DNA of 64,000 bases from Paraspadella gotoi (taxonomy: Eukaryota; Animalia; Chaetognatha). The position numbers were made by a program, and so were the translations under genes. The stretch is from contig CM119269.1 in assembly GCA_051294375.1 (NCBI GenBank), positions 18,788,607-18,852,606 on the forward strand. Direction: 5' to 3'. Position 1 is the first letter of the stretch. Each line of letters opens with the position of its first letter. The notes beneath the pieces were generated by a model. It was not told the DNA's origin and did not search any database. It worked only from the letters and a program-made list of their open reading frames with translations. Shown here in pieces: positions 5,814 to 55,300 of this stretch.

Positions 5814-17475
<11,662 letters not shown>

Positions 17476-23736: not shown

Positions 23737-25369
23737 TTTTTAGTCGGATCTGCTTATCAGCAGTTCCGACTCTATAACTCACTTTTTCGTTCCGTCGTCC
23801 GCCCCCTCAATATTGTCGGGCACACACTTATATCATGTCAGAACATCGAATTATGATAAATTATGCAAAAAAAATGATGTCCGTCCGTCCGTCCGTCCGT
23901 CCTCCGTCCCGTCCGTCCGTCCGTCCGTCCGTCCGTCCGTCACCTTAGCAAAAAAACACCAATTACTCGTGATTGGATGGATGGATTTTAATGAAATTTT
24001 GTGTGAGGATAGGTAAGTGTGTGATTGAGCTGGATATGAAGTTTCGATGGAATCGTCCGAGTGGAAATGAGTTTAAATGGAAAAAACAAAAAAAAATATT
24101 CACTATTTGAACACCAATTGCTCATGAGTGGATGGGCTGATTGACCTGGAATTTTGTATGTGGGTAGGAAAGTGTGTGATTGAACAGGAAATCAAGTTTC
24201 GATGGAATAGTTTGAGTGGAAATGAGTTTAAATGGAAAAAAAACAAAAAACCTGTTTTACTAATTGATTATGCTCTTTTTTCCTTTTATATTAAATGTAT
24301 ATGCAGGATGTATTAATAAATCAAATAATTAATCAGTTAATTAATCAATTAGTAATAAATTAATCAATAATTAATTAATTAGTCAATCAATCCGTCCATC
24401 CGTCTAATCTTAGCAAAAAGCTCCAAAAAACTCGTGATTGGCTGGTTGGATTGGAATTAAATTTTGTGTGTGAGTAGGAAAGTGTGTGTATAAAGCTGGA
24501 TATAAAGTTTCGATGGAATCGTGTGAGTGGAAATTAGTTTAAATGGAAAAAAACATAAGTCGAATTTACTAAAATCTTTTTACTTATTTTAACCAATAAA
24601 TACTCTAATTAATCATAATTGGATGGATAGATTGAGTTGAAATTTTGTGTGTGGGTAGGAAAATGTGTGACGAAGCTTGATATAAAGTTTCAGTGGAAAC
24701 GTACCAGTGGAAATGAGTTTAAATGAAAAAAATATGAGTCACATTTACTTGAATCTTTTTATTTATTTTTAACCCATGATAGATTGAGATGAAATTTTGT
24801 GAGCCAGTAGGAAAGTGAGTGAAGAAGCTAGATATAAAGTTTTGACGGAATGCAAGTTGAAAAAATGATGCAAGTTGAAAAAATGAGCAAGTTAAAAAAT
24901 CTAAAAAGCATAAGGACGTCGAATTGCATAAAAAGAGAGAGAGAGAGAGAGAAAGAGAGAGTGGAGAGAGAGAGAGTGAGAGAGTGAGAGAGAAAGAGAG
25001 AGAGTGGAGAGAGAGGAGTGAGAGAGAGAGAGAGAGAGAAGGAGACATAAAATAAAAAAATCTTAAAAGACTCAAGATCGAGCCAGAGCCCACTATCAAA
25101 GAAAATTAATGAAAAACCGGGAAAAAAACGAATGAATCATGCGATAACGAATTATTGATGTAATAGTAATTGATTAAGGTAATACTATTGATTGATGTAA
25201 TAGTAATTTATTGATGTAATAGGAATGATAATTGATTCGATGATAATCAATTATTGATGCGATGATAGTCATTCACTGCTGTGATGATAGTCATTTACTG
25301 ATGCGATGATTGTCATTCATTGATGCGATGATAGTCAATAAAACAAAAAATATGCGTGTATTGAGTGAA

Positions 25370-25400
<31 letters not shown>

Positions 25401-25860
25401 GAGAGAGAGAGAGAGAAAGATAGAGAATAAATCCACGAAAATCTCGGATGAAAATATGGGATTTTGTATTGAAAAAAAGCGCGGAATAAATGGTAATAAT
25501 AAAAGTTTTTAGAAGGAAAAAAATAATCAGAATTTTTCAAAAAACAAACGATCACGCAGAGATCGGACAGAGAGGGACAGACACACACAGAGAGAAAAAA
25601 AGAGAGAGAGAGACAGCCGCTGCAAGAGAAAAGAGGAGAAGAAAGAGCGATATATAATAATTAAAAGAGAGAGAAAGAGAGAAGCTCTACAGCCCCTTTA
25701 CTCGTTAAAGAATCAGCAGTACCACATGGCGCTGGACGTAGTGTGAGCTTTTCTTTTACCCAAGGACCCGGATTCGCACCCTGTTCGCGGCATCGTTTTT
25801 TACATTAGTGAGCCCACATTATATCTAAAATTTTTTTTAAAAAGAAAAAAAAGAAAAAAA

Positions 25861-25921
<61 letters not shown>

Positions 25922-26420
25922 AGCTGAGAGAGAAATCAGAAGAAGCAGTGACGGAGAAAAAGAGAGAGAGAGAGAGCGACATATATTTAAAAGAAAGAGA
26001 GAGAGAGAGCGACATATAAATTAAACGTTTTGTTTTGTAAATAAAACATAAACAAAACAATACGAATATTGATATGAAACATGAGAATTTTAAAGATCTT
26101 GATCTTAGAAGCCATATATGAAATTTCAACTCCCTTTGATATCACACTTTCAGAAGCCATGATTGCAAAAAAGCGTGACCGAAAGCTAAACCGAATCAAA
26201 ATCGATAATAGAGGATATTTGTTTGTTTTGATAAAATGTAAACAAAACATTTAATAACTGTCCTGACTCAATTTTAAGGACATCGATGAGGACAAGCTGA
26301 ATATAAATTAATAATTAAATTATTAATTAATTAATTAATTATCTATTAATTAATTAATTAATCTATTGATTAATTAATTATCGTAGGCAGATCCGACACT
26401 TGTTTGCTCAAACTTGTTTT
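23737..26420 (+). mobile_element. DINE-1/HINE-like (Helentron-associated) non-autonomous element
   Basis: 5' TTTTTAGTCGGATCTGC-TTATCA-GCAGTTCCGACT (subTIR plus adjacent IR), (GTCC)n microsatellite at 23879-23940, internal about 120-bp tandem repeats, 3' subTIR GCAGATCCGAC and terminal hairpin GTTTG-CT-CAAAC. The same ends bound 40190-41270. Confidence 0.7.
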
Positions 26421-36459: not shown

Positions 36460-39400
36460 TCCACAATTTACAAGTTTATATATGTTAAAATGTAAGTTCT
36501 TAAATTTTGTTTCGATATCCGATAATTGCTTTGAAAAGTTTTACGAATGCGATTGTTGTATGGTTGTCCTATTCATATATTTATATATTATTTTACTGGA
36601 TTCGATTTTTTTCTTAATTCTGACCTTTTCTTTAAAATTTTCTTTCCGCCCAGCATTTCTTGGATCGCAGAGATCTGGAGGAGCGAGGAGAGAAACTTTG
36701 CAAGAAATGTCCGGTTGTTCTCAACCACCTGACGTGCAGCACGGGCTACAAAGCCATCTACGGCCCTTTGCAGAAAGACTGCCGCTGCGTCAAAGCTTAC
36801 AAGTGTTGTGAAAAGTGCAAAGCGCTCACAGAGAAAGACAAGAAAAAGTGTAAACCTGGTAGGTGTCTCTGGTTTCGAATTAGTATTACAAAATAATGTA
36901 TAAGTTTTTAAATTTCGAGTGTGATTTTTTATGCACCGTTTTATATTCTTATATTTAATATAACTATTTCACAATTTTTTTTTTTATTAGGTAAATATAT
37001 TCCAAAAAGAATCCACGATTGTTGTGGATGCGAACAGATCGTGTGCAAACCTTGTCCGGAGTTCCTTCTACCTGGTCCAGGAAGTAAGTAAGACAAACGG
37101 GGCAATAAGTCAGGGGCAAGATAGCTTATTTATTTAAAAAAATGGATCATTTTTATTTTTGTTTGTACAAATTTCATATTCCCCTCTTTCCATTCCTCCA
37201 ACTTTCTCACCCCGGCCCTTGCCCCCTTCTCCAGAGGATGTCCCTGTAGACTTCGAAAACGCAACAAAACTTACCACCAACGACAAAGTAAACAAACCAA
37301 AACCCGAAGATGTTTTCAATAACGACAAACCATTCAAGATTAAGCCTGGAAAAGCCGTCATCGCCAAGCTCGACCTGCCAGTGCACGTAAGCAAAGTCAC
37401 CATCACTGGTCCAGAAGATCCGAAAAAAGCCCCAAACAAGTTTACCCTCCTCGTGTCTAAAGACAAGAAGTGCACAAAATGGGTCAAGATTGTCATGCGA
37501 GTGAGAAACTTTGATAAACCAAACCAGAAAAAATCTTTTTCCATTCCGAACATGAGGCGGAGAACCAGTTGGTGTGTCGCGCTGAAAATCGACAAGAAGC
37601 CCAAGACTACGCCTTCGCCCCCAACCACTACGGCTCCCCCCACCACTATGGCTCCTCCAACCACCATGCCCCCACCTACAACCGAACAACCCACTTCACC
37701 CGGTGCAACTGGAGGAAGCCCAAATACAGCACCCTCCCAACCTACGGGCCCACCAAGCGTTACTACCCCTCAGGCAACTACTACCACCACGCTTGGGAAA
37801 CCTGGTGAACCAGGCGGAAATGGTGGACCAGGTGGACCGGGGGGTCCAGGAGGACCTGGAGGCCCTGGCGGACCGGGTGGACCAACCACCACTTCTGGAC
37901 CTACAACAACTACAACCACAAATTTGCCAGGTAAACCAGGTGGACCGGGTGGACCACTCGGAAATGGAGGGCCAGGTGGACCTGGAGGGCCAGGTGGACC
38001 TGGAGGTCCTGGGGGTCCTGCAGGGCCTGGAGGACCGGGTGGACCTGGAGGACCAACTACCACTCCTGGACCTACTACAACTACTTCTACTAATATACCT
38101 GGTAAACCAGGTGGGCCTGGTGGTCCACTTGGCAATGCTGGACCAGGAGGACCGGGAGGACCAGGAGGACCTGGAGGACCTGGTGGACCTGCTGGACCTG
38201 GAGGACCGGGTGGACCTGGAGGACCACTACCACTCCTGGACCTACTACAACTACTTCTACTAATAAAGCTGGTGAACCAGGTGGTCCTGGTGGTCCACTT
38301 GGAAATGGAGGACCAGGAGGACCGGAGGACCAGGCGGCCTGGAGGACCTGGAGGACCTGCTGGCCTGGAGGACCGGTGGACCTGGAGGACCAACTACCAC
38401 TCCTGGACCTACTACAACACTTCTACTAATATAACCTGGTAACCAGGTGGGCCTGGTGGTCCACTTGGGAAATGAGGACCAGGAGGACGCGGAGGACCAG
38501 GTGGACCTGGAGGACCTGGAGGACCTGCTGGACCTGGAGGACCGGGTGGACCTGGAGGACCAACTACCACTCCTGGACCTACTACAACTACTTCTACTAA
38601 TAAAGCTGGTGAACCAGGTGGGCCTGGTGGTCCACTTGGAAATGGAGGACCAGGAGGACCGGGAGGACCAGGTGGTCCTGGAGGACCTGGAGGACCTGCT
38701 GGACCTGGAGGACCGGGTGGACCTGGAGGACAACTACCACTCCTGGACCTACTACAACCACTTCTACTAATATACTGGTCAACCAGGTGGGCCTGGTGGT
38801 CCACTTGAAAAATGGGGACAGGAGGACCGGGAGACGCAGGTGGACCTGGAGGACCAGGTGGGCCTGGTGGCCCTGGAGGACCAGGAGGCCCAGGCGGACC
38901 ATACACTACGGTTAAACCTGAAAAAACTACTACCCCAAATGGACCACCTGGAAAAACAACTACCCCAAATGGACCACCTGGAAGTGTTACTATCATACCT
39001 GTTCCAACTACAACTAAAAAGCCTGGCACCCCTGGAGGACCTGGCGGACCTGGAGGCCCTGGAGGACCAAATGGACCTGGAGGACCTGGTGGTCCTGGCG
39101 GACCGGGTGGACCTGGAGGACCAACTACCACTCCTGGATCTACTACAACTACTTCTACTAATATACCTGGTCAACCAGGTGGTCCTGGTGGTCCACTTGG
39201 AAATGGAGGACCAGGAGGACCTGGAGGACCAGGCGGACCTGGAGGACCTGGAGGACCTGGAGGACCGGGTGGACCTGGAGGACCAACTACCACTCCTGGA
39301 CCTACTACAACTACTTCTACTAATAAAGCTGGTGAACCAGGTGGGCCTGGTGGTCCACTTGGAAATGGAGGACCAGGAGGACCGGGAGGACCAGGCGGAC

Positions 39401-42400
39401 CTGGAGGACCTGGAGGACCTGCTGGACCTGGAGGACCGGGTGGACCTGGAGGACCAACTACCACTCCTGGACCTACTACAACTACTTCTACTAATAAAGC
39501 TGGTGAACCAGGTGGGCCTGGTGGTCCACTTGGAAATGGAGGACCAGGAGGACCGGGAGGCCAGGTGGACCTGGAGGACCTGGAGGACCTGCTGGACCTG
39601 GAGGTCCGGGTGGACCTGGAGGACCAACTACCACTCCTGGACCTACTACAACTACTTCTACTAATATACCCGGTAAACCAGGTGGACCTGGTGGTCCACT
39701 TGGGAATGCAGGACCAGGAGGACCGGGAGGACCAGGTGGACCTGGAGGACCTGGAGGACCTGCTGGACCTGGAGGTCCGGGTGGACCTGGAGGACCAACT
39801 ACCACTCCTGGACCTACTACAACTACTTCTACTAATATACCTGGTCAACCAGGTGGGCCTGGTGGACCAGGAGGAAACGGCGGACCTGGCGGACCAGGAG
39901 GACCAGGCGGACCTGGAGGGCCTGGTGGACCTGGTGGGCCAACAACTACCCCTTATCCTACAACGGGAAAGCCAGGGCAAACCACAACTCCAGGGGTCAC
40001 AACCAAGCCGACACCCACACCTCCAACTAAACCCGAGACTGTCGAATTGCGGAGGATTACTATGCTTAGGAGAGTCAAAGCAGGTTGGATCAATTTACTT
40101 AATATCACGTAATTTTTTGGGGTTCAGTTCTACATCTATCAATTGATCTCCTTCACATAAGCTGCTGCAGCAGTCACGCCTCCTGACCGTTTTTAGTCGG
40201 ATCTGCTTATCAGCAGATTCCGACTCTATAATTCACTTTGTCGGTCCGTCGGTCCGCCACCACAATCTTGTCGGTCATTCACTTAAATCATGTCACAACA
40301 TTGAATTATGATAAATTAAGTAAATAAAAACTATGTCCGTCCGTCTGTCTGTCCGTCTGTAGGTTCGTCCATCCCCTTTAGCATTAAACTCCAATAACTT
40401 GTGATTGGATGGATAAATTGGAAAGAAATTTTGTGTGTGGATAGGAAAGTGTGTGATTGAGTTGAATATAAAGTTCCGATGGAATTTTGCAAGGGGAAAT
40501 GAGTTTAAATGGAAAAAACAAAAGTCATGTTTACCGAAAAATTTTTTACTTATAATTACGTATAATTATTCTATTTATTCAGAATTGCATGGATGAACAG
40601 CGATACAATTTTGGTTGAGGGTAAAAGTTTGTCATTAAGCTAGCTATTAAGTTTTGATGGAATGGTGCAAGTAATATAATGGTTGAACTGCAAGTAATAT
40701 AAAAATTATTAAAACAATTATGCAATTTGAGCATATTATGCAAGTTGAGCAAATTATGCAAGATAGCCAAATTATGCAAGTTGACCAAATAATGCAACTA
40801 GGCCAAATTATGACAGTTGACCAAATTATACCAGTTGACCAAATTAATCCAGTTTACCAAATTATGCCAGTTGACCAAATTATGCCAGTTGACAAAATAT
40901 GCCAGTTGACCAAATTATGCCTGTTGACCAAATATTGCAAGTGAACCAAATTTTTGAAGTAGACCAAATTTTGCAAGTTAACCAAATTATGCCAGTTGAT
41001 CAAATTAGGCAAGTTGCTAAATTATGCCAGTTGACTAAATTATGGTGGTTGGTATTGGCGCAGCTCCTGGTAATGATTGATAGATAAATTGATTTATAGA
41101 TATGTTCATAAATTTATAAAAAAGTCTCTTATGATTTGTTATGTTATGATTTGTTATGATCTGTTAAGACAACAAATTGAAAGTCAGAAAGAATTATAGT
41201 GATTTAACAGCGGAATAGCTTATTACCGCTTAATTATCGTAGGCAGATCCGACATTGTTTGCTCAAACTCAAAAAATCTATTAAACATTTAAAAAAATTA
41301 CAATTATTTCTACTTCCAAGTCAAATTGGAATTACGTAGCTCTAGTTCATTGTTGAAATTATGTAGGATTCAAATAAGATTCATTTTATAATTCTATTGA
41401 GATTCAGGAAAAAAACAAGGAGAGTGATTTCACTCTCTCTCTCCCTCCTCTTTCTTTTCTGTCTCTTGCTCTCTCAGCTCTCTTTGTTTGTCTTTCTCTT
41501 TTATATGCTTAAAAAGGCTCTCAAATAAAAATATGTTAAAAATATTTTTGTAAATTTATTGTATGATTTATGTATAAAGTAAAAATTATTAAAAAAATGG
41601 GAGAATCGTTGAAATCTTAACGTTCATTTGTTTTCGTCTTCAGGCAAGCCCAAGCCAGGACCTAACCAGGTAGTCTTTGAATGCCCCAATCCATGCGACA
41701 AGCCAATGAAGCACAAGGACAGCAGCACCAAGTGCCCCATCTACAAGTGTGAGCGCCGCCCAAGACCTAACTACCCAAAACCGGTAAGACATTTTTATTA
41801 TAACTAACTAATAACTACATTTCTTTAGGTTTTGGTCTTTTTTCTTTTTATTTCCGTTTTTTCTTCATTTTTTTTGGCGACTTGTTATCTGTCTTTTAAG
41901 TACTATTCGAGTCACTTACAATAAATTTTGAAAAACAAAATTAACAATTTGGTATTGAATATTGTAACTTTTAGAAATCGATGCAGATGAGTTCATCAAT
42001 CCTAGGAGAGTATTTTTCTTTCTTTCCTAGAATTGTACCGAGTGTCAAAAGGAGTGGTCGGTCACGGACCGATGCGGCCACCATCGCGATGTGTGCAAGT
42101 GCGTAAAAGTGCCAGAGTGCAAACCCCCGATTCCGCCACCGAAGGAGTGCCACAAGATCGTCAAGGTTGACCTCAAAGAGACGGCCTGCACTAAAAACAA
42201 GACGACCTGCGAGAGATGTTATCGTTACGAGTACGAACCCATCAAGATCAAGCCTATCGTCAAAAAGGTGCGTCCCTTAATTTAAAGAGAAAAATTTATA
42301 GGAAAAATATTATTTTCCTTTTATTTATTTTTATTAGTCTACTTATTTTTGTTGCGGGAATAGTAATTTGTTTGTAAAACAAAACCATGTATGTAACATC

Positions 42401-44819
42401 TGAAGAGACAGTGATTATTGTTATGTGTTAGTGACAGAACCGTTCAATATAAGCAGTCCCTGAGCTTCGGATCAGGCTGTAACACCATGTTACTGGCGGG
42501 TTAAGCGCCCCATCCCTCTTAACTGCTAGGCGACCACCGGGCAAGAACTCCGGACCTTTGGGTTGGGAGGTGAATGACTTGCCTCCGGCACCAATGGCCG
42601 CTGATGAACGGTTGGTGGATTTTAGTCCACCATACATCCCCCCCTCCCGTAGGGAAAAATCTGTTGCGTCTCTTCAGTGAATTGTTGGTGAAAAGTACGT
42701 CACCAAGTTGAGGCATGTTGCCTCATGTGTTGTTGGCGGAAAGTGCATAGCCAGGTTGAGGCATGTCGCCTGAAAGTGTTGTTGTTGCTGTAGTGTTCGG
42801 AAGTTGGGCTCACCAATGAAGAGACAGTGATTATTGTTATGTGTTAGTGACAGAACTGTTCAATATAAGCAGTCCCTGAGCTTCGGATCAGGCTGTAACA
42901 CCATGTTACAGGCGGGTTAAGCGCCCCGTCCCTCTTAACTGCAAGGCGACCACCGGGCTAGAACCCCAGACCTTTGGGTTGGGAGGCAAATGACTTGCCT
43001 CCGGCACCAATGGCCGCTGATGAACGGTTGGTGGATTTTAGTCCACCATACATCTTTTATAAATTATTTTTCGTCTTCAGCAATGAGTAGTTTTTAATAT
43101 CATTAACTTGTTTACGTATTTTTCTCTTTCTTATATACAGTGCAATGCCGATTGTCTGGAGGAAAAGATAATAAAGGGCAAATGCGGGTCCTACGCCGTC
43201 GTTTGCGCCTGCAAGGACGTCAAGAACTGCTTCCCCAACAAGCCCAAGTGCCCCAGCGACAAGTGAGTTGTTTGTGAATTGCATCTCTCCAGTTGTGACC
43301 ACCTTTCAGAAATATTAATGGCGACATTTGCTAAATATCTAGATTTACTTGTTTGTTTTTTTTTGTCTGCCCCTTATCGGTAATAAATATTTTTTCAAAA
43401 CTGTATGGTTCAGTTACGGATTTATTTAAAGCAAAATCACCCAAAAAATGTTATCAATGCGCTCTTCATGCTCTCTATCAAGGTGTCCCAAGTGTCACAA
43501 AATGGAGAAGAAATACATCAAGGACCTCTCCAAGTGCGTGAAGAAGAAGAACGGCACTATGGTCTGCAAGAAATGCTATAATTGGTTTCCGGTCCCGATC
43601 AAAATCAATAGCACTCTTCCTGAGGTCAGTTAAGGGTCAGCATTTACGTTTGCGCGTCGTAAATAAGTCGCTTCCAAAACTGATTTATTATCATTTTAAT
43701 TTTAATTTTAAACGTTATTTTTCATGAAAACTCTCTCAAATGATATTTTGTGATCTTTAATAAAAATAAAAGGTTAAAGATAAAGAGATTTTCCCCCTGA
43801 CATTTTGACATTTTTGGTCGGTCCAAGTCTAAGTCTAAGTCTAAGTCCAAGTCTAAATTGAGTTTTCTTAAATCCTCATTTTTTCCTCCCCGACCAAACA
43901 GAACTGCGACTTCCGTTGCAAGTCGTTGGTGCCGGTCAGCAAGGATTGCGGTTCCGCCGTCACTTGTCAATGCATCGATAAAAAACCCAAGTGAGTCATA
44001 GACATTAGACATTAGACAAGTACTAGTAAAAGTCAAAAATATTTTTTGTCAAATTTGTTTCCACTACGAAATCTGATTCAAAGCCGACATTAGTTTTAAC
44101 AATAGCAAATACTACGAATTTATTATCGGTGACTAGGTTCTGCCAGCCAAAGAAGAAGGTTCCATCCAAATGCTACGAAGCCAAGAAGATCAAAAATAAG
44201 GAAGATTTCATGTGCACCAAGGACAACAGCACTTGCGTGCCATGCTGGAGCTGGGAGTACACGAAGAAGGAGTGCACGAACAATAAGACGGTGAGATAGA
44301 TAATAATGTTGACGATTGTGCTGGTGATGTTGTTGTTGGTGATTATGGATATATGATGATAATGATGAATTCATGTTGACAATTATGTAATGACGATGAT
44401 AAACCTCGATGATTTACACAAAAAATAATAAAGCCTGAGATGATAAACAAAATATATATACATATATATACATACTTTCAAAGTTAATAAATATATTTAA
44501 TAAATAATAAACTTTCCTTGCAGACATGCTTGAAACCTTGCCAAAGCAAAGTGGAGGTTCACGACAAATGCGGTTGTTACGTCGAGAAATGCAAGAATCA
44601 CGTGATCAAGGACTGCCAGCCGACCAAGCCAACCTACGATCCATGCTTCAAAGAACCTAAGAAGAATTACACTGGCGCCACCTCTTACAATGACCAAAAC
44701 AAAATATGCGAAAAGTCAGTACCGGTTCTTAAAGAAAGTGAAGTCAATTTTTACGTACTCTCGTTTTTTTTAAAGTGATGGGAAGAAAGAACCTTTTTTT
44801 TTAATAGAAAAACCGTAAA

Positions 44820-48732: not shown

Positions 48733-50110
48733 TCTTAACCCCCCTCTTTTCCTATCTCTCTCTCTCACTCTCTCTCTGCAGTCTCATTAGAGCTGGACCT
48801 CCCTTTATTTAAACTAGCTTAACTAAATTGCTCTTTATCTATATTCAAGACTAATCAACAAACAAACCATCAACAAACCATCAACAAATAATAACAAAAA
48901 ACAAACGCGAAATTTGAAAAGAATCCTGTGGAACCGCATACAGTATCTAATTTTTACCATTTTTGTGACGACCTCAATCAATTTTCTAATACGCGGTTTG
49001 GTATTATCGTTAATATATACATATACCATTAAAAAAAGCAATTCTGAACTTGAAAAGCTAAGAAAAAAGAATATGAAACCAAGAAGAAAAAAAAGGGAAA
49101 AGAAGGAAAATAAAAGAGAAAATAATTTTCTGATGTCTGATTTTGATGTCTCGTTTTGTCTCGTTTTCCGCTTGGCCCTTTTGTTGATCGAGGGGTTAAG
49201 GGAGGTCAGCACGAGGCGTGGAGAAACCACCCGGCCCTCTAACGACGTCCGTCGGAATAAATAAATAAAAACGAAAACAAAAAGAGACCGACTTAGAAAT
49301 ACCAAGCAGAAAGGTAGGTCTTGTGAAACGAAATGGGGAAATAGTGAATGAAGAATTTAATCGTTGAAAATGAAAATACGATTTAATATTTATTTTAAAT
49401 ATTGGTAGATATCGAACATTAAAAACAAAAACATAGAAATATTACGGATATAATATTGGTGAGTTGAGTTAAATTTAATATGAAAATTTTCAAATTACTT
49501 GTTTCACTATTTTTTTAAAAATTTTTTATTTTTATATTATTATGAAAGATATTACCATTTAATCTATATTCTTTAAAGTATTATATATATTAGCTTTCTT
49601 AAGAATTTTTTTTACTTATCATTATATCTAATAACATGCAATTTTGGAATGGGAAGTTCAGTGTTGTTCTCTGGAAATAGAGGGGAGCATCTAACAACCA
49701 AGGTTAGATTACAATAACTGTCGCTAGGTTTTCTAAATAGATATCCACATCATTCCTGTTAGAATAGTCATTAACTGAAAAATCATAATATCTAATAGGG
49801 CTGAACAGAAAGGGGTGGGAATGGATAATTTTTTGATGGGGGACCAAAAGTTATATATGATTTTTTTAAAAACTAATAGGGATAAGACTACAAAGTAGAT
49901 TGTATGTTTGATAGGGATACATACTGGGGAAAGGTCTATAGGGGCACTTTTATGTCATTGAATATAATTTTAAAAATACTTTAATGAAAATAAATTTTTT
50001 TCCTTTATCCTAATTTTTAATTATTCTATTTCTGAATATTTTTTATCTATTATGTTTATACAATGCGGAAGGTCATCAAGTTGGGTGAACGAGCTATACC
50101 TATATGAAGA

Positions 50111-50166
<56 letters not shown>

Positions 50167-51467
50167 GCAAAAAATTAAAGTTATTCGAGTTTCGCCCGAA
50201 CGTAAAAGGTCTTTGCCAGGCGACGATGACGATAACGACGACGAAGTCTAAATACAATTGCTTATAATGACAATAACTGTTAAATTGATAATGATATGAA
50301 ATGTGATTAGTAATTATTTTTTGAGACGACAATAACTTAAAAATCATTAAATCTTGATCAAACTATTTCTAAACTAGAACGAAAATGAGAAAAAAAGACA
50401 ATGATAATAATTAATGAATATAATGACAATGATAAGAATTAATATGGGCGATAATGATGTTGAACGAAGTCGTCAACTTCGAAAGAGGGCGGAAACGAAA
50501 CGAAACGAAACGAAAACTACGACGACGCCGACGAAAGCAAAACCTGTTTTTAATTTGGCCTCTGTTCGCTCAGAAATTAATTCAAAGGTTTCCTCGCCAA
50601 CTCTTACATTGGTGTCTCAAAATGTCAAATTCTTGTTTCACTATTTTAAGTTTTAGATTTTAAAATATTCATTAAAATTATTTATTATAGAGGGAGCATC
50701 TATAGTTTCTATACAACACAAGGTTATATTACTTCCTGTCTTAGTTTTCTAAATAGATATCACACATTAAGAAAATCATTAGTCAGAACCTCATAAAATC
50801 TAAATTTCTAGCCATACTACAAGTTAAGGTAATTGTCGTAATTTTTAGTAAATGCTGAGAGAAACAAAAATTAGGAGATAGAGACGAGACGAAGAGAAAT
50901 TAGCTGAAAGAGAGATAGGAAAAGAAGGTATGTGAGAGAGAGAGAGAGTGAGAGAGAAGAGAGAGGAGAGAGAGAGAGCAGAGAGAGAGAAAAGAGAAGA
51001 GAGAGAGAGAGAAAAACTGCCCAAGATCCGGAAACACCTACGTGTTTAAAGCAGTCGACGCCTCTGAAAACCGACATAAAAATTGTCAACAGTTTTTTGA
51101 ACGTTTAAAAATGTTTTAAACTTCTACGTACAAATACATTGTAATTTAATATAAACGTAAATACTTGGTAAACGTAAACGTAAAATGTTTTAAAACTTTT
51201 ACATCAAGTAATATTAATGTTAATATTTATAATAATTAATAAATGAAATTCGTTGATATTAGCAATAGCTTCAAAAAAAGAAAGAAGGAAAAAAGAAAGA
51301 AGATGAGGCGATTAAAAAAAACGAGAAAAACGCGAAGGAAGGAAAAAGAAAAGAGATGACGAAAATGAACTGAGGAAAGGGTGTTGTTGTTTTCTGCCTT
51401 TTTTTAAAGTGTTTGACCTGAAAACGATGGGCGTTTATTCGGTAAAGAGAGAAGGAAAAAAAGCAAA

Positions 51468-51517
<50 letters not shown>

Positions 51518-51698
51518 GAGAGAGAAAAAAGAGAGAGAGAGAGAGAGAGAGAGCAGAGAGGGAGAGACAGGGAGAACGGAAAACGCTTCTGAAGCAGCCA
51601 ACGATGGGTGGAGGGCGAGAAAAAACTGGTATGATTGTTTTTGCAACGCCTTTGCGGGAGGGAACTGCCAATGAGAGTTAAGGAGAGAGAGAGTGAAA

Positions 51699-51756
<58 letters not shown>

Positions 51757-51769
51757 GGAGAGCAGCGGT

Positions 51770-51897
51770 CGACCGTGGCGCTGGGCGTCTCCGATTCTTT
51801 AAAGGGGCCGTCGTCTGACTCGAGACAGAGACGGGAAAAAACTGACTCTCGACGATTCGCTTGGCGTCGACAACTAAACCCTTACGACGACGATTGG
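51770..51897 (+). promoter_or_regulatory. Putative core promoter and non-coding first exon of paralogue B
   Basis: TTTAAAGGGGCCG...GAGACAGAGACG...TCGACGATTCGCTTGGCGTCGA followed by donor TGG|GTAAGT. Homologous to 35620-35756. Confidence 0.55.
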
Positions 51898-52294
51898 GTA
51901 AGTTAAGTAACTTGCCGATTGATTGATTTATTGATCGATTTAATTTTTGATTGGATTTTTTTCCCGATTATTGATTATGCGATTATTTGGTGATTCTCTT
52001 GATTTATTCTATAATTTCTGCGGTTTGATCTAAATAAAATAACTTAAGCAACTTTTATGATATTAAAAATTCAATGAATATTTTTGTAATAAATTTTTTG
52101 CCAAATGATATTACGAAATTTATTTGACTTTTAAAATGCTCTGAACAGTGTTGATTTTAACGCGACAATGTCAACAGTCTGACCTCACAAATAAGATCGC
52201 TGCTTAGGTTTGCGCCTTATGCGCGTCCGTGTAGGTCGGTCCAGTTGCCGTGGTAAGGAAGGGAAGAGAGAGAGAGAGGAGAGGAAATGAAGAC

Positions 52295-52359: not shown

Positions 52360-55300
52360 CCCAAGGCGAAGAATCGAATACGAATTCGAATTTCAACGAA
52401 GTTCATCAAGTAAGTTGGTTCATAAATAAATGTTTCGTTAAGATACAACTTTTTTTTTGTTTTATTCCCTCCCGTTTAAATTCGTTTTCTTTTTTTTCAT
52501 TTCTCCCACCCACCCTTCCAGAATTACCTTGACCGACGAGATCTGGAGGAGCGGGGTGAGCAGCTCTGCAAGAAATGTCCTCCGGTCATAAACCATCTGA
52601 CTTGCAAAACCGGATACAAGGCTGTTTACGGACCTATGAAGAAAGGATGTCGCTGCGTGAAAAAATACAAGTGTTGCGAAAAGTGTAAGAAGATCACCGC
52701 CCGTGACAAGAAAAAGTGTAAAAAGGGTAAGCAGTTTGCCGTCTTACATTTTTTTTGTTGTGGTTTTTATTCTATTTAGTGTCGAGAATCTCTTGTACTC
52801 GTTGTCTTAATTTTTTTCGGTTCAGGAAAATACATTCCGCACAAAATCCACGACTGTTGCGGATGTGAGAAAATCGTGTGCAGACGATGTCCCAAATACG
52901 TCCTTTCCGGTCCCGGAAGTGAGTTTCGTTATACGTAATAATAATGTATGTATGTATGTATATATAATTAACTTTAACATCCTTTAACTCCACACCATCC
53001 CCCTTTCGTGTTCTCTCCGAGCAGAGGAGGTCTGGGTGCGTCCGAAAAAAGTCAAATCTAACGACAAATCGGCCAAAAAGCCCAACAACGCCTTCAACTC
53101 GCCCAAGAAGCCGTTCAAAGTCACGCCCAAAAAGAAAATCATCGCCCGCTTCAGGCTGCCGGTTCACGTCAGCAAAATCTTGGTCCAGGCGCCAAAAAAT
53201 CCGAAGAAGGCGCCCAATAAGTTTAAGATTTACGTGTCGAAGAACAAGAAGTGCACCAAGTGGAGGAGGGTCACCACCGCGGTTCGCCGGTTCCACAAGC
53301 GCTTTCAGAAGCGATGGATCAAGATCAAGAACATGAAGCGCAAGACGGGATGGTGTTTGGCCATTAAGGTCGATTGGATTCCGAGAAAATCGAAGCCCAA
53401 GGAAAAGAAGCCCAAGAAGCTCCAAGTCGGTCGCATTCGCATCAAGAGGAAAGTCAAGAAAGGTGTGTAAAGGACTGAGGTCGAAAATTGATTGATTAAA
53501 TGAAAAAGTCATGTTTTATGTTTGTCCAAAAGTCGTTCTGTTTTAGATTGCTACAGGCCAAATTATATTTGATTTTTTTTTCATTTTTGACCAGGCAAGC
53601 CTAAGCCGGGAGCGAACCAAGTGGTTTTCTCTTGTCCCAACCCTTGCGATCGCCCCAAGAAACACCATGACAGCAGCACTAAGTGCCCCATCTACAAGTG
53701 CGAGAGGAGGCCCAAGCCGAAGTACAGGAACCCGGTAGGGAATTTAATTGTTGTTAAAACAGGAAGAGAGAGAGGAAGAGAGATAACGATTCGTATTTCC
53801 TAATCTCCGTCATTCTCTTGCGACGACGCAGAAATGCTCAAAATGCCAAACGAAAACGACAGTGACCGACAAGTGCGGTTATCACCGCCACCGTTGCGAG
53901 TGCGTCACCCCGCCCGCTTGCACACCCAAGAGGCCGACCAAGAAGAAGTGTCACAGGATCGTAAAGAAGAAGCTCAACGGCTGGAAGTGCTCCAAAAACA
54001 AGAAGCGTTGCATCCGCTGCTGGCAATACCGGTACAAGAAAATCAAGGTCAAGAACATCGTCAAGAAGGTGAGTCGTGGGAAAGCGTGGTTGTTGGCGTT
54101 TGGGTCGAAGAAACAAGAGCCGTTGGCGTTTTTAGGGTTTTTCCATATAATCATGGATTCATCCTCTTAATAAATAAAATGAAGTAAACCTCTAATTTTC
54201 TTTTTTCTTTTCGCTCCTCTTCCTTCTCTCTACCCTCAGTGCAAATCGTGCCAAGTGGCCAAGCTGAAGAAGGGCAAATGCGGATCCTGGATCACCAGAT
54301 GCGTCTGCAAGAAGACCGCCCATTGCAGACCCAAGAGACCAAAGTGCCCCGGCCCCAAGTGTCCGAGGTGTTTCACTATGAGGAAGAAATACTTGAGCGG
54401 ATTGACCTATTGCGGCAAGAACAAGAAGGGCAAGCGTGCGTGTAAGCGCTGCTACACTTGGGTCCCCAAACCACTGAAGGGTGCTCTTTCCTCCTCCAAG
54501 TCGAATAAGCCAATCGTGAGTAAATTTGTATTTATGTAGCAATTATGGGAAAATTTTACATTTAAAAACGGAGAAATGAAAATTTAAGCAGAATGTTGTT
54601 TGGGAACTGGTATGAAATTGGTACAACCAATATAAAAATTATCCATTCATTTAATAAATAAGCTATCTTGCCCCTGACTTTGGACAGGCTTTGGTGGTTT
54701 AAGGCCTCCATCACTCTTACAAGATAATGTAATTTTTTTAAATATTCAATTGGCTTCAATTTCATCTCTCTCAGAAATGCGGCCCCTGCAAAATTCCAGT
54801 CCCCGTCAGCAAAAAATGCGGCTCAGCCCTCAAGTGCAAATGCATCAAGAAAAAGTACAGATTGTGCCGACCCAAAGTTTCCGCACCGTCCAGCTGTTAC
54901 AAGGCCTCTAAGAAGTGGAACAAGCAGTACATGTGCAACAAGAGGAAGAAGTGCATTCGTTGTTGGACTGTCAAGTACACGAAGAAGAAGTGCAAGCACA
55001 GAAAGAGGGTAAGAAGTAAATATGATTATCGTTCCTTGTAATTGGTTGACAAGTGTATAAGTAATTAGTTATAGAAGCACAACAATTTTTTTTCTACAGA
55101 AATGCCAGAAAAAGTGCCAAACAAAGATTCGTAAGCATGACAAGTGTGGCTGCGTGACAGACACTTGCAAGAGTCACGTGATCAAGGGTTGTCGCCCGAA
55201 AAAACCCGTCCGCGACCCTTGCTTCAGGAATCCAAAAAAGATTTGGCGAAAGATTTGGAGTTTCCGCAAAGGCCGATGCATGAAGTGCTACAGGTGGAGT

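Follow-up and report, generated by a model that had tools for sequence, protein, structure and literature searches.

A TRIM-like family of mini LTR retroelements with a candidate twister-type motif in each LTR

In a 64-kb stretch of contig CM119269.1 (the whole of the DNA analysed here, called the window below) we studied a short element with direct terminal repeats that is present in two copies on the minus strand. We propose, with a probability of roughly 0.45, that it represents a non-coding family of mini long terminal repeat (LTR) retroelements resembling TRIMs (miniature retrotransposons with terminal repeats), and that each LTR carries a twister-type motif predicted to cut the RNA of the element. 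The positions of the features are collected in Table 1.

The first-pass annotation of this DNA had described a 652-bp mini LTR element at 43052 to 42401 on the minus strand, and a second copy at 16718 to 16083. Both were borne out. Copy 1 consists of a 236-bp repeat, a 180-bp centre and another 236-bp repeat, and its two repeats mismatch at 9 of 236 positions. A blastn comparison of the element with the window returned copy 2, which is 92.5% identical to copy 1, and these two copies were the only matches within the 64 kb. The 5′ LTR of copy 2 lacks its first 12 nt, and the repeats of this copy mismatch at 4 of 224 positions. No open frame of at least 90 amino acids overlaps copy 1 or copy 2; the element is non-coding.

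Each LTR opens with a perfect 7-bp hairpin, UGGUGGA-CUAAAA-UCCACCA, located at 43048-43029 and 42632-42613 (minus strand). The same hairpin gave spurious weak Rfam matches on the plus strand (P26, E 6.6). The centre (42637-42816, minus strand) includes two diverged copies of a segment of about 50-55 nt (CATGCCTCAAC...TGG...CACTTT...CCAACAA).

Eleven public sequencing runs share words with the element; eight of them do so at shares of 0.44-0.73, and all eight come from a single organism (organism A). Four of the 11 runs were examined, as contigs and not as reads, namely X1, X5, X9 and X10, the last from organism B. In X1, as many as 19,614 contigs align on the element. Their ends pile up at 42400/42401 (29 + 127 contigs), at 43050 (86) and at 42634 (67), and the 5′ boundary is likewise fixed in X5 and X9. 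Letters past the element ends agree only at 0.41-0.44 and are AT-rich, which indicates true element ends standing beside unrelated DNA. The element is a very abundant family with fixed ends and unrelated, AT-rich flanks.

Most LTR bins have a summed word depth of about 2-3.8 million (range about 0.4-3.8 million), compared with 0.5-1.1 million for the centre; these are rough figures, since contig depth does not measure the number of copies. The pattern fits full elements together with many solo LTRs. Joints in the contigs (skips of 427-478 and steps back of 370/388) were considered as traces of arrays and rejected: they occur in single contigs with extra letters, and we read them as indel variants or chimeras.

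The contig ends also shift the element boundary. The first-pass annotation had given the repeats TG...CA ends, and this did not hold: in the runs most copies cease to match at 43050 and 42634, 2 nt inside that TG. Thus, the integrated unit has TATGG as its first letters. The TG ahead of the 3′ repeat would then belong to the junction between the polypurine tract (PPT) and the LTR, and it can be likened to the terminal dinucleotide that retroviruses lose on integration. If the unit starts at 43050, copy 1 is bordered by GATG on both sides, a putative target-site duplication (TSD). Duplications of 4 bp are typical of many Ty3/Gypsy elements. Copy 2 is truncated, and GATG also forms the last 4 nt of the centre.

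A site resembling a primer binding site (PBS) after the 5′ LTR and a PPT ahead of the 3′ LTR had both been reported on the minus strand, and both are there. The purine run has no variant of at least 10% among the variants listed. The resemblance of the PBS-like motif to tRNA-Trp held as well, with the two copies exchanged: the 13-mer given at first pass is the complement of the 3′ end of human tRNA-Trp, and it is copy 2 that agrees at 12 of 13 letters and copy 1 at 11 of 13, scores that refer to the human sequence, which may not equal the 3′ end of the host tRNA-Trp and in that respect count against our proposal. For comparison with the host tRNA, the letters are TGGTGAGCCCGAC. At place 42805 the letter of copy 2 is the majority one, with 97-99.7% of depth in three organism A runs. 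Past the PBS, the hexamer GAACAC keeps up the resemblance to the tRNA-Trp T arm in antisense, with a gap of 3 nt. The 13-mer named at first pass is the start of an antisense oligonucleotide against human tRNA-Trp including CCA (bioRxiv 10.1101/400127, in part), and the same tRNA-Trp complement serves as a PCR primer for avian proviruses (PMC5029493, in part).

The case for an LTR element is strong, and we hold this part of the reading to be very probably correct, because the PBS-like motif lies 2 nt past the repeat, starts with TGG and resembles a tRNA end, and because the purine run abuts the next repeat. TRIMs are recognised by LTRs of about 100-250 bp, a centre of about 100-300 bp, a PBS, a PPT, the lack of coding sequence and the presence of many copies. 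All of these traits, from LTR size and centre to PBS, PPT, non-coding nature and copy abundance, were found in the element.

For the motif inside the LTRs, twister rules were taken from PMC5408937 (in part), Table 1 of PMC8501958, the supplement descriptors of PMC10085705 (in part) and Rfam's own alignment. Type P5 is the block order C-A-B, that is P2′-GA-T1-P1′, P1-NAA-P2-RC and (P3)-P4-L4-P4′, where P5 closes between P4′ and P2′ (PMC10085705, in part). At LTR offsets 111-184 we read GCAGU (P5), UAAGAG-G, GA-CGG, GGCGCU, U^AA, CCC and GC, followed by CUGUAACA-UGG-UGUUACAG (P3), CCUG-A, U-CCG-AAGC, U-CAGG, G and ACUGC (P5′), with UCCGAAGC as L4. The first-pass annotation had called a twister core here in P5-permuted order. 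The pieces at 42942 to 42869 do stand in that order (P2′-L1′(GA+T1)-P1-N^AA-P2-RC-(P3)-P4-L4-P4′, P5); no Rfam twister match goes with them.

All four LTRs of the window have GA-CGG/UGG, the palindrome, UAA, CCC, GC, P3, CCUG-A-U-CCG-AAGC-U-CAGG and the closing P5, and in every LTR the sense of the motif is that of the PBS and PPT. The pseudoknots T1 (CCG:CGG) and T2 (GC:GC) are perfect in three of the four, and the remaining LTR has a G-U pair. The 3′ LTR of copy 1 has private changes, namely GA-UGG (T1 G-U) and one broken P3 pair. In the 5′ LTR of copy 1 the letters equal the majority at all core positions but one loop position. A minimum free energy (MFE) fold of the motif yields P5, P3 and P4, and a TATA-like TATAT follows directly after it. 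Rfam gave no hammerhead match in the LTR. The variable T1 positions (LTR offsets 125 and 169) were rejected as covariation evidence: both are CpG sites, and ordinary decay explains them.

A relaxed C-A-B descriptor found the four LTRs and also a fifth place in the window, 54712-54673 on the minus strand, which lies in another repeat family outside the LTR element. At 54673-54715 this sister motif is matched by Rfam Twister-P5 (RF02684) with 25.8 bits (E 4.1e-4 on 81 nt, model positions 1-58), below the curated threshold of 37.6 bits. In the Rfam alignment the odd P2 pair is flagged, and P1 is aligned as a stem whose loop has zero length. The sister reads AUCUUG (P5), UAAGAG-U, GA-UGG, AGGCCU, UAA, ACC, AC and CAAAG, and then CCUG, U-CCA-AAGU, CAGG, GG and CAAGAU (P5′). 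An alternative parse of the LTR motif, taking P2′ from the GGG after P4′, was set aside: type P5 breaks between P4′ and P2′, and Rfam aligns the sister motif otherwise.

The two families share UAAGAG-N-GA-NGG, a 6-nt palindrome in the place of P1, a 3-nt P2 with C.A and a closing P5. Unlike the LTR motif, the sister is canonical at the P4-L4 junction. Its pseudoknots are CCA:UGG (T1) and AC:GU (T2), so that from LTR to sister both T1 and T2 change from G-C to A-U in a compensatory way. The first P2 pair likewise changes from C-G to A-U. The P1 palindrome is GGCGCU in the LTR and AGGCCU in the sister, self-complementary in both, and P5 is wholly different and still paired (GCAGU/ACUGC and AUCUUG/CAAGAU). 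Since MAFFT misaligned L4 and P5 across the families, base pairs were counted by a script that sliced the window.

When shuffled windows are scanned with the core descriptor alone, 300 of them yield 87 sites and 1500 yield 379 (0.25-0.29 per window); with the palindromic P1 segment added it finds 2 sites in 1500. The pattern of the subtype has 5 sites in the window versus 0 in 100 shuffles. Descriptors and pattern were written after the LTR motif had been seen, which leaves the fifth, unrelated site as the one independent test. A loose P5 test passed 183 of the 379 chance sites and carries no weight. Exact-pattern scans of metagenome contigs, with an LTR-specific pattern and with the subtype pattern, gave 0 matches, as did the exact subtype pattern against the genome contigs collection.

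Because the independent fifth site matches Rfam Twister-P5, there is good evidence that the motif represents a real, recurrent twister subtype that Rfam appears to miss or under-score. The LTRs probably carry a ribozyme of this P1-less type-P5 subtype, and it is fairly likely that the LTR version is catalytically active.

The sister motif is part of a tail repeat family, judged at least as abundant as the LTR element, to which 15,530 contigs belong in X1, and which is also present in organism B (X10). Flanks before 54611 are unrelated, and past 54728/54729 other copies go on with shared sequence (agreement about 0.6). The copy at 11595-11704 reaches further 5′, with 9 nt of the motif deleted, and the one at 37107-37178 is 5′-truncated and starts inside the motif. 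Because all three window copies finish in identical letters and vary in their 5′ ends, the family appears to be the footprint of a 3′-anchored, 5′-truncating, non-LTR-type retroelement.

Table 1. Features of the mini LTR element and of the sister repeat family in the window
Feature	Positions	Strand	Basis
Mini LTR element, copy 1 (two repeats around the centre)	42401..43052	-	sequence, blastn; contig ends pile up at 42400/42401 and 43050
Family-wide unit of copy 1	42401-43050	-	contig ends in runs
5′ LTR of copy 1, 236 bp	42817..43052	-	96.2% identical to 42401-42636
3′ LTR of copy 1, 236 bp	42401..42636	-	repeat comparison
PBS-like TGGTGAGCCCAAC, 2 nt past the 5′ LTR (TT between)	42803..42815	-	11/13 letters equal the tRNA-Trp complement
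Polypurine tract GGGAGGGGGGGA, then TG, then the 3′ LTR unit	42637..42648	-	12-nt purine run; family repeat start at 42634, 2 nt on
Twister-like motif, 5′ LTR of copy 1; predicted cut between 42919 and 42918	42869..42942	-	hand and script parse; MFE fold
Twister-like motif, 3′ LTR of copy 1; predicted cut between 42503 and 42502	42453..42526	-	parse
GATG, left half of the putative 4-bp TSD of copy 1	43051..43054	-	flanking letters and unit boundary
GATG, right half of the putative TSD	42397..42400	-	flanking letters
Copy 2	16083..16718; 5′ LTR 16718-16495, centre 16494-16319, 3′ LTR 16318-16083	-	blastn, repeat comparison
Twister-like motif, 5′ LTR of copy 2	16547..16620	-	parse, pattern
Twister-like motif, 3′ LTR of copy 2	16135..16208	-	parse, pattern
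Sister twister, same subtype, other repeat family (comparison partner, outside the LTR element)	54665..54725	-	Rfam Twister-P5, parse
Tail repeat family	54611-54729 (-); also 11595-11704 (+), 37107-37178 (+)		window copies

In the mechanism that we propose, a transcript that runs through both LTRs would be cut in each of them, after U134. The predicted cut sites lie 416 nt apart in copy 1 and 412 nt apart in copy 2, in agreement with the unit of 412-416 nt suggested at first pass. The 416-nt product (412 nt for copy 2) would have no terminal redundancy. The usual strand transfer of LTR elements could not work on such a molecule, so ligation into a circle would be needed. Twisters leave a 5′-OH end and a 2′,3′-cyclic phosphate, which are substrates of RtcB-type ligases, and a host ligase of that type would close the excised RNA into a circle. 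At its junction such a circle would restore the LTR sequence. Folding of the predicted circle gives z = -2.75 with 57% pairing, and the shape is not rod-like. An autonomous LTR element might then supply the enzyme that copies the circle round, starting from a tRNA-Trp-like primer at the PBS. Copying of a circle by a helper enzyme has been proposed for plant retrozymes (PMC7761336, in part).

The missing P1 has a possible place in this mechanism. The two LTR twisters of one transcript may pair through GGCGCU, forming P1 between them and coupling both cuts. P1 is probably built in this way, through the self-complementary segment, and the dimeric hammerheads of Penelope-like elements offer a parallel for paired twisters (PMC7761336, in part).

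A wider form of this proposal is, in our estimate, rather doubtful. It would make the element an animal twister LTR retrozyme, in which P1-less twisters pair by their palindrome, so that only a two-LTR transcript is cut, and cut twice, and in which the 416-nt RNA is circularised and primed by tRNA-Trp. The same subtype would serve a second, non-LTR-type retroelement, the ribozyme being a shared module, and animal retrozymes of this kind would have arisen independently.

The promoter suggested by the first-pass annotation did not survive. The supposedly tRNA-like segment of 72 nt found no support: ARAGORN reported 0 genes in the window, and no Rfam tRNA model matched at E<=10. The segment folds as a Y with an 11-bp stem, with no cloverleaf. 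A scan with the A- and B-box consensus motifs of RNA polymerase III (Pol III) gave a B-box-like match of 10/11 at LTR offset 88, and the best A-box-like match, at offset 93, overlaps it and is not upstream. Thus, neither ARAGORN and Rfam nor the fold and the box scan support a Pol III promoter derived from a tRNA. That copy 2 has no T4 runs was dismissed as a sign of Pol III transcription; about 1.4 runs are expected in 636 nt, and the absence is not significant.

Several points weigh against the twister-bearing LTR element that we propose. In the window, Pfam matches among 130 frames (12 + 118) included no reverse transcriptase or integrase domain and no autonomous partner. Rfam covariance models applied to the LTR did not recover the twister called at first pass, neither at the gathering threshold nor at E<=10, on 851 nt or on 111 nt. 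Three departures from the published core are evident in the LTR motif. Its P2 has 3 nt (2 Watson-Crick pairs and C.A) compared with 4 bp. An extra A-U pair stands between L4 and the 'essentially invariant' G-C pair of P4 (CCUG/CAGG), where the rule is 3 bp plus this G-C pair (PMC5408937 and PMC10085705, both in part). Finally, the P1 hairpin is absent, and the 6-nt GGCGCU (self-complementary with G-U) takes its place between GA-CGG and UAA; the P1 stem is described as dispensable for twister cleavage (PMC5408937, in part).

No signal of selection was seen in the motif either: variants of at least 10% occur at 3 of 74 core positions and at 13 of 162 other LTR positions, among the variants listed. 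Also, the comparison of subtypes is based on two motif families. The TSD evidence is weak, because it comes from copy 1 only and because GATG also ends the centre and might reflect a partial tandem.

The alternative that survives best is an ordinary TRIM-like element. Here the twister-like motif would be inactive, or only a single-cut processing or termination signal or a structural element; there would be no excised unit and no circle, and the element would move through a terminally redundant Pol II transcript with the aid of a helper. All the LTR features that this requires are present, and animal TRIMs without ribozymes exist (PMC4558846, in part). With TATAT after the motif, transcription of the element itself might begin downstream of the 5′ twister. 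The failure of the motif in Rfam and its three broken core rules (P2 length, closing pair and P1 hairpin) point the same way. However, the same three 'defects' recur, with compensatory changes, in an unrelated repeat that Rfam scores as Twister-P5. This suggests that the departures are traits of a subtype and not the result of decay. The motif is, moreover, intact in all four LTRs of the window, and the 5′ LTR of copy 1 keeps the majority letters apart from the one loop position. On balance we regard the ordinary TRIM as unlikely.

A second alternative leaves the ribozyme in place and questions the LTRs. In a non-LTR retrozyme of the Penelope type, the repeats would be pseudo-LTRs, formed by a partial tandem in which a 416-bp repeat is present 1.57 times, and the likeness to a PBS and PPT would be accidental. 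Consistent with this, the same twister subtype occurs in the tail of a 3′-anchored, 5′-truncated repeat family of the window, the 5′ LTR of copy 2 is truncated, and GATG precedes both repeats of copy 1. Yet X1 has 86 + 67 contigs with a fixed 5′ boundary next to unrelated flanks, and X5 and X9 show the same, which is unlike a 5′-truncating mechanism. The PBS 2 nt past the repeat, the 12-nt purine run and the match of 12/13 to a tRNA 3′ end form the signature of an LTR element. In addition, the repeat has about 3-fold the depth of the centre, where arrays would approach 1:1, and no joint of about 416 nt is found among the 15 joints listed. We therefore consider this alternative improbable.

Least probable is a chance twister likeness in a structured LTR with no ribozyme of any kind: the LTR has no Rfam match, the descriptor was fitted after the motif was seen and its core alone finds sites in shuffled windows, but adding the palindromic P1 leaves only 2 sites in 1500 shuffles, the subtype pattern has none in 100 against 5 real ones, and the independent fifth site matches Rfam Twister-P5 across the full model.

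None of the 11 runs is recorded as RNA; X9, which carries the label 'RNA?', holds spliced RNA contigs, and one of its contigs bears on copy 1: a loose end at 43139/43141 carries letters ending near 42267. Because this contig joins about 42267 to 43139/43141, copy 1 is implied to be intronic, filling most of an intron of about 873 nt (about 42268-43140) of a plus-strand gene in antisense orientation. Copy 2 sits, also antisense, between two exons of a P-type ATPase. This cation ATPase gene (7332-17472, plus strand) has several exons with matches to E1-E2_ATPase, Cation_ATPase, Hydrolase and Cation_ATPase_C, and its introns house, besides copy 2, one copy of the tail family.

Another X9 contig, of 2,433 nt (depth 5,129), joins 54515 to 54775 over a 259-nt GT..AG intron, with the tail repeat inside in antisense orientation. 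The exons at 54350-54515 and 54775-55008 (plus strand) belong to a highly represented transcript whose frames look Cys- and Lys-rich, and Pfam gave no family for the exon frames of 54350-55008.

Elsewhere in the window, 37100-40150 is a GC-rich block (59% at 38-40 kb) with long open frames in several frames and on both strands. One of them, 39174-40094 on the minus strand, encodes collagen triple-helix repeats (E 1e-11). VWA and F5/8-C matches in Pfam were also obtained, and the window looks like animal DNA. The intervals 24001-26000 and 50001-52000 have GC skews of 0.42 and 0.33 and AT skews of 0.25 and 0.23, and are probably simple or satellite-like sequence. Ten N letters occur in the whole window.

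Small retroelements with a Pol III promoter and/or a ribozyme have precedents. Schistosome Sm-alpha repeats combine Pol III boxes with a hammerhead, and plant Cassandra TRIMs have a 5S promoter in the LTR. In the element described here a Pol III promoter is unsupported.

The closest resemblance in layout is to the plant LTR retrozymes (PMC4918200; PMC7761336, the latter in part). Both are small and non-coding, with direct LTRs and one ribozyme or candidate ribozyme in each; the 5′ LTR is followed by a PBS and the 3′ LTR is preceded by a PPT, and in both the unit between the cuts includes these two sites. Plant LTR retrozymes have 4-bp target duplications, while here the putative GATG is seen in copy 1 only. 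The motif is twister-like here and a type III hammerhead there, the PBS is like tRNA-Trp in place of tRNA-Met, and the host is an animal and not a plant. The LTRs have 236 bp compared with about 350 bp, and the unit about 415 nt compared with 600-1000 nt. In plants the circular RNA accumulates; for the present element it is predicted.

With the metazoan non-LTR retrozymes (PMC7229834; PMC7761336, the latter in part) the element shares an animal host, a small non-coding repeat with a ribozyme or candidate ribozyme, and the possible need for two copies of it. Those retrozymes are tandem, carry type I hammerheads and are without LTR, PBS or PPT; the element in the window has all three as well as fixed ends, and its motif is twister-like. 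TRIMs, including the ta-TRIM of taeniid cestodes (PMC4558846, in part), are alike in size and in their many copies, and they too have short LTRs, a non-coding centre, a PBS and a PPT. As far as the literature searched goes, which covers part of PMC4558846, no self-cleaving ribozymes are described in TRIMs.

As to the motif itself, type-P5 twisters (RF02684; PMC5408937 and PMC10085705, both in part) have the same C-A-B order, an N^AA cut site, GA and a 3-bp T1 with L4, a GC/GY T2, a U...AAGY loop, P4 and a closing P5. Unlike them, the LTR motif has a palindrome for P1, a 3-nt P2, an extra A-U in P4, an insertion at P3 and no Rfam score. The twister variants of the Perere-3/RTE elements of Schistosoma mansoni (PMC8501958, in part) are similarly linked to a retrotransposon and have a weak or variable P1, and their P3 (CUGUA...UUACUG) resembles the P3 of the LTR motif. 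They are of type P1 and single, at the 5′ end of a coding long interspersed nuclear element (LINE), where they act in 5′ processing and translation; the motif in the window is type-P5-like and stands twice per element, in the LTRs of a non-coding LTR element.

The first-pass annotation knew of no comparable element, and this agrees with our search. In the literature covered, which leaves subscription papers and some supplements (including that of PMC8501958 on S. mansoni twister variants) outside, we found no account of an LTR element with a twister in its LTR, nor of a retrozyme with one. Animal retrozymes are stated to lack LTR, PBS and PPT, and truncated twisters are mentioned at the 5′ end of RTE elements (PMC7761336, in part). 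A paper of November 2026, in the part seen, links twisters to retrotransposons only in general terms. A role of eukaryotic twisters is known for one LINE family only (PMC8501958, in part), and LTR retrozymes have been described only in plants and only with hammerheads.

If our proposal is true, the retrozyme lifestyle is not bound to one ribozyme class or to one kingdom, and the element would offer nature's own test of a twister that works only when two copies are present. It would also point to small circular RNAs in an animal from a source that is large and unannotated. Even without circles, the window would reveal a twister subtype, missed or under-scored by Rfam, at very many genomic sites.

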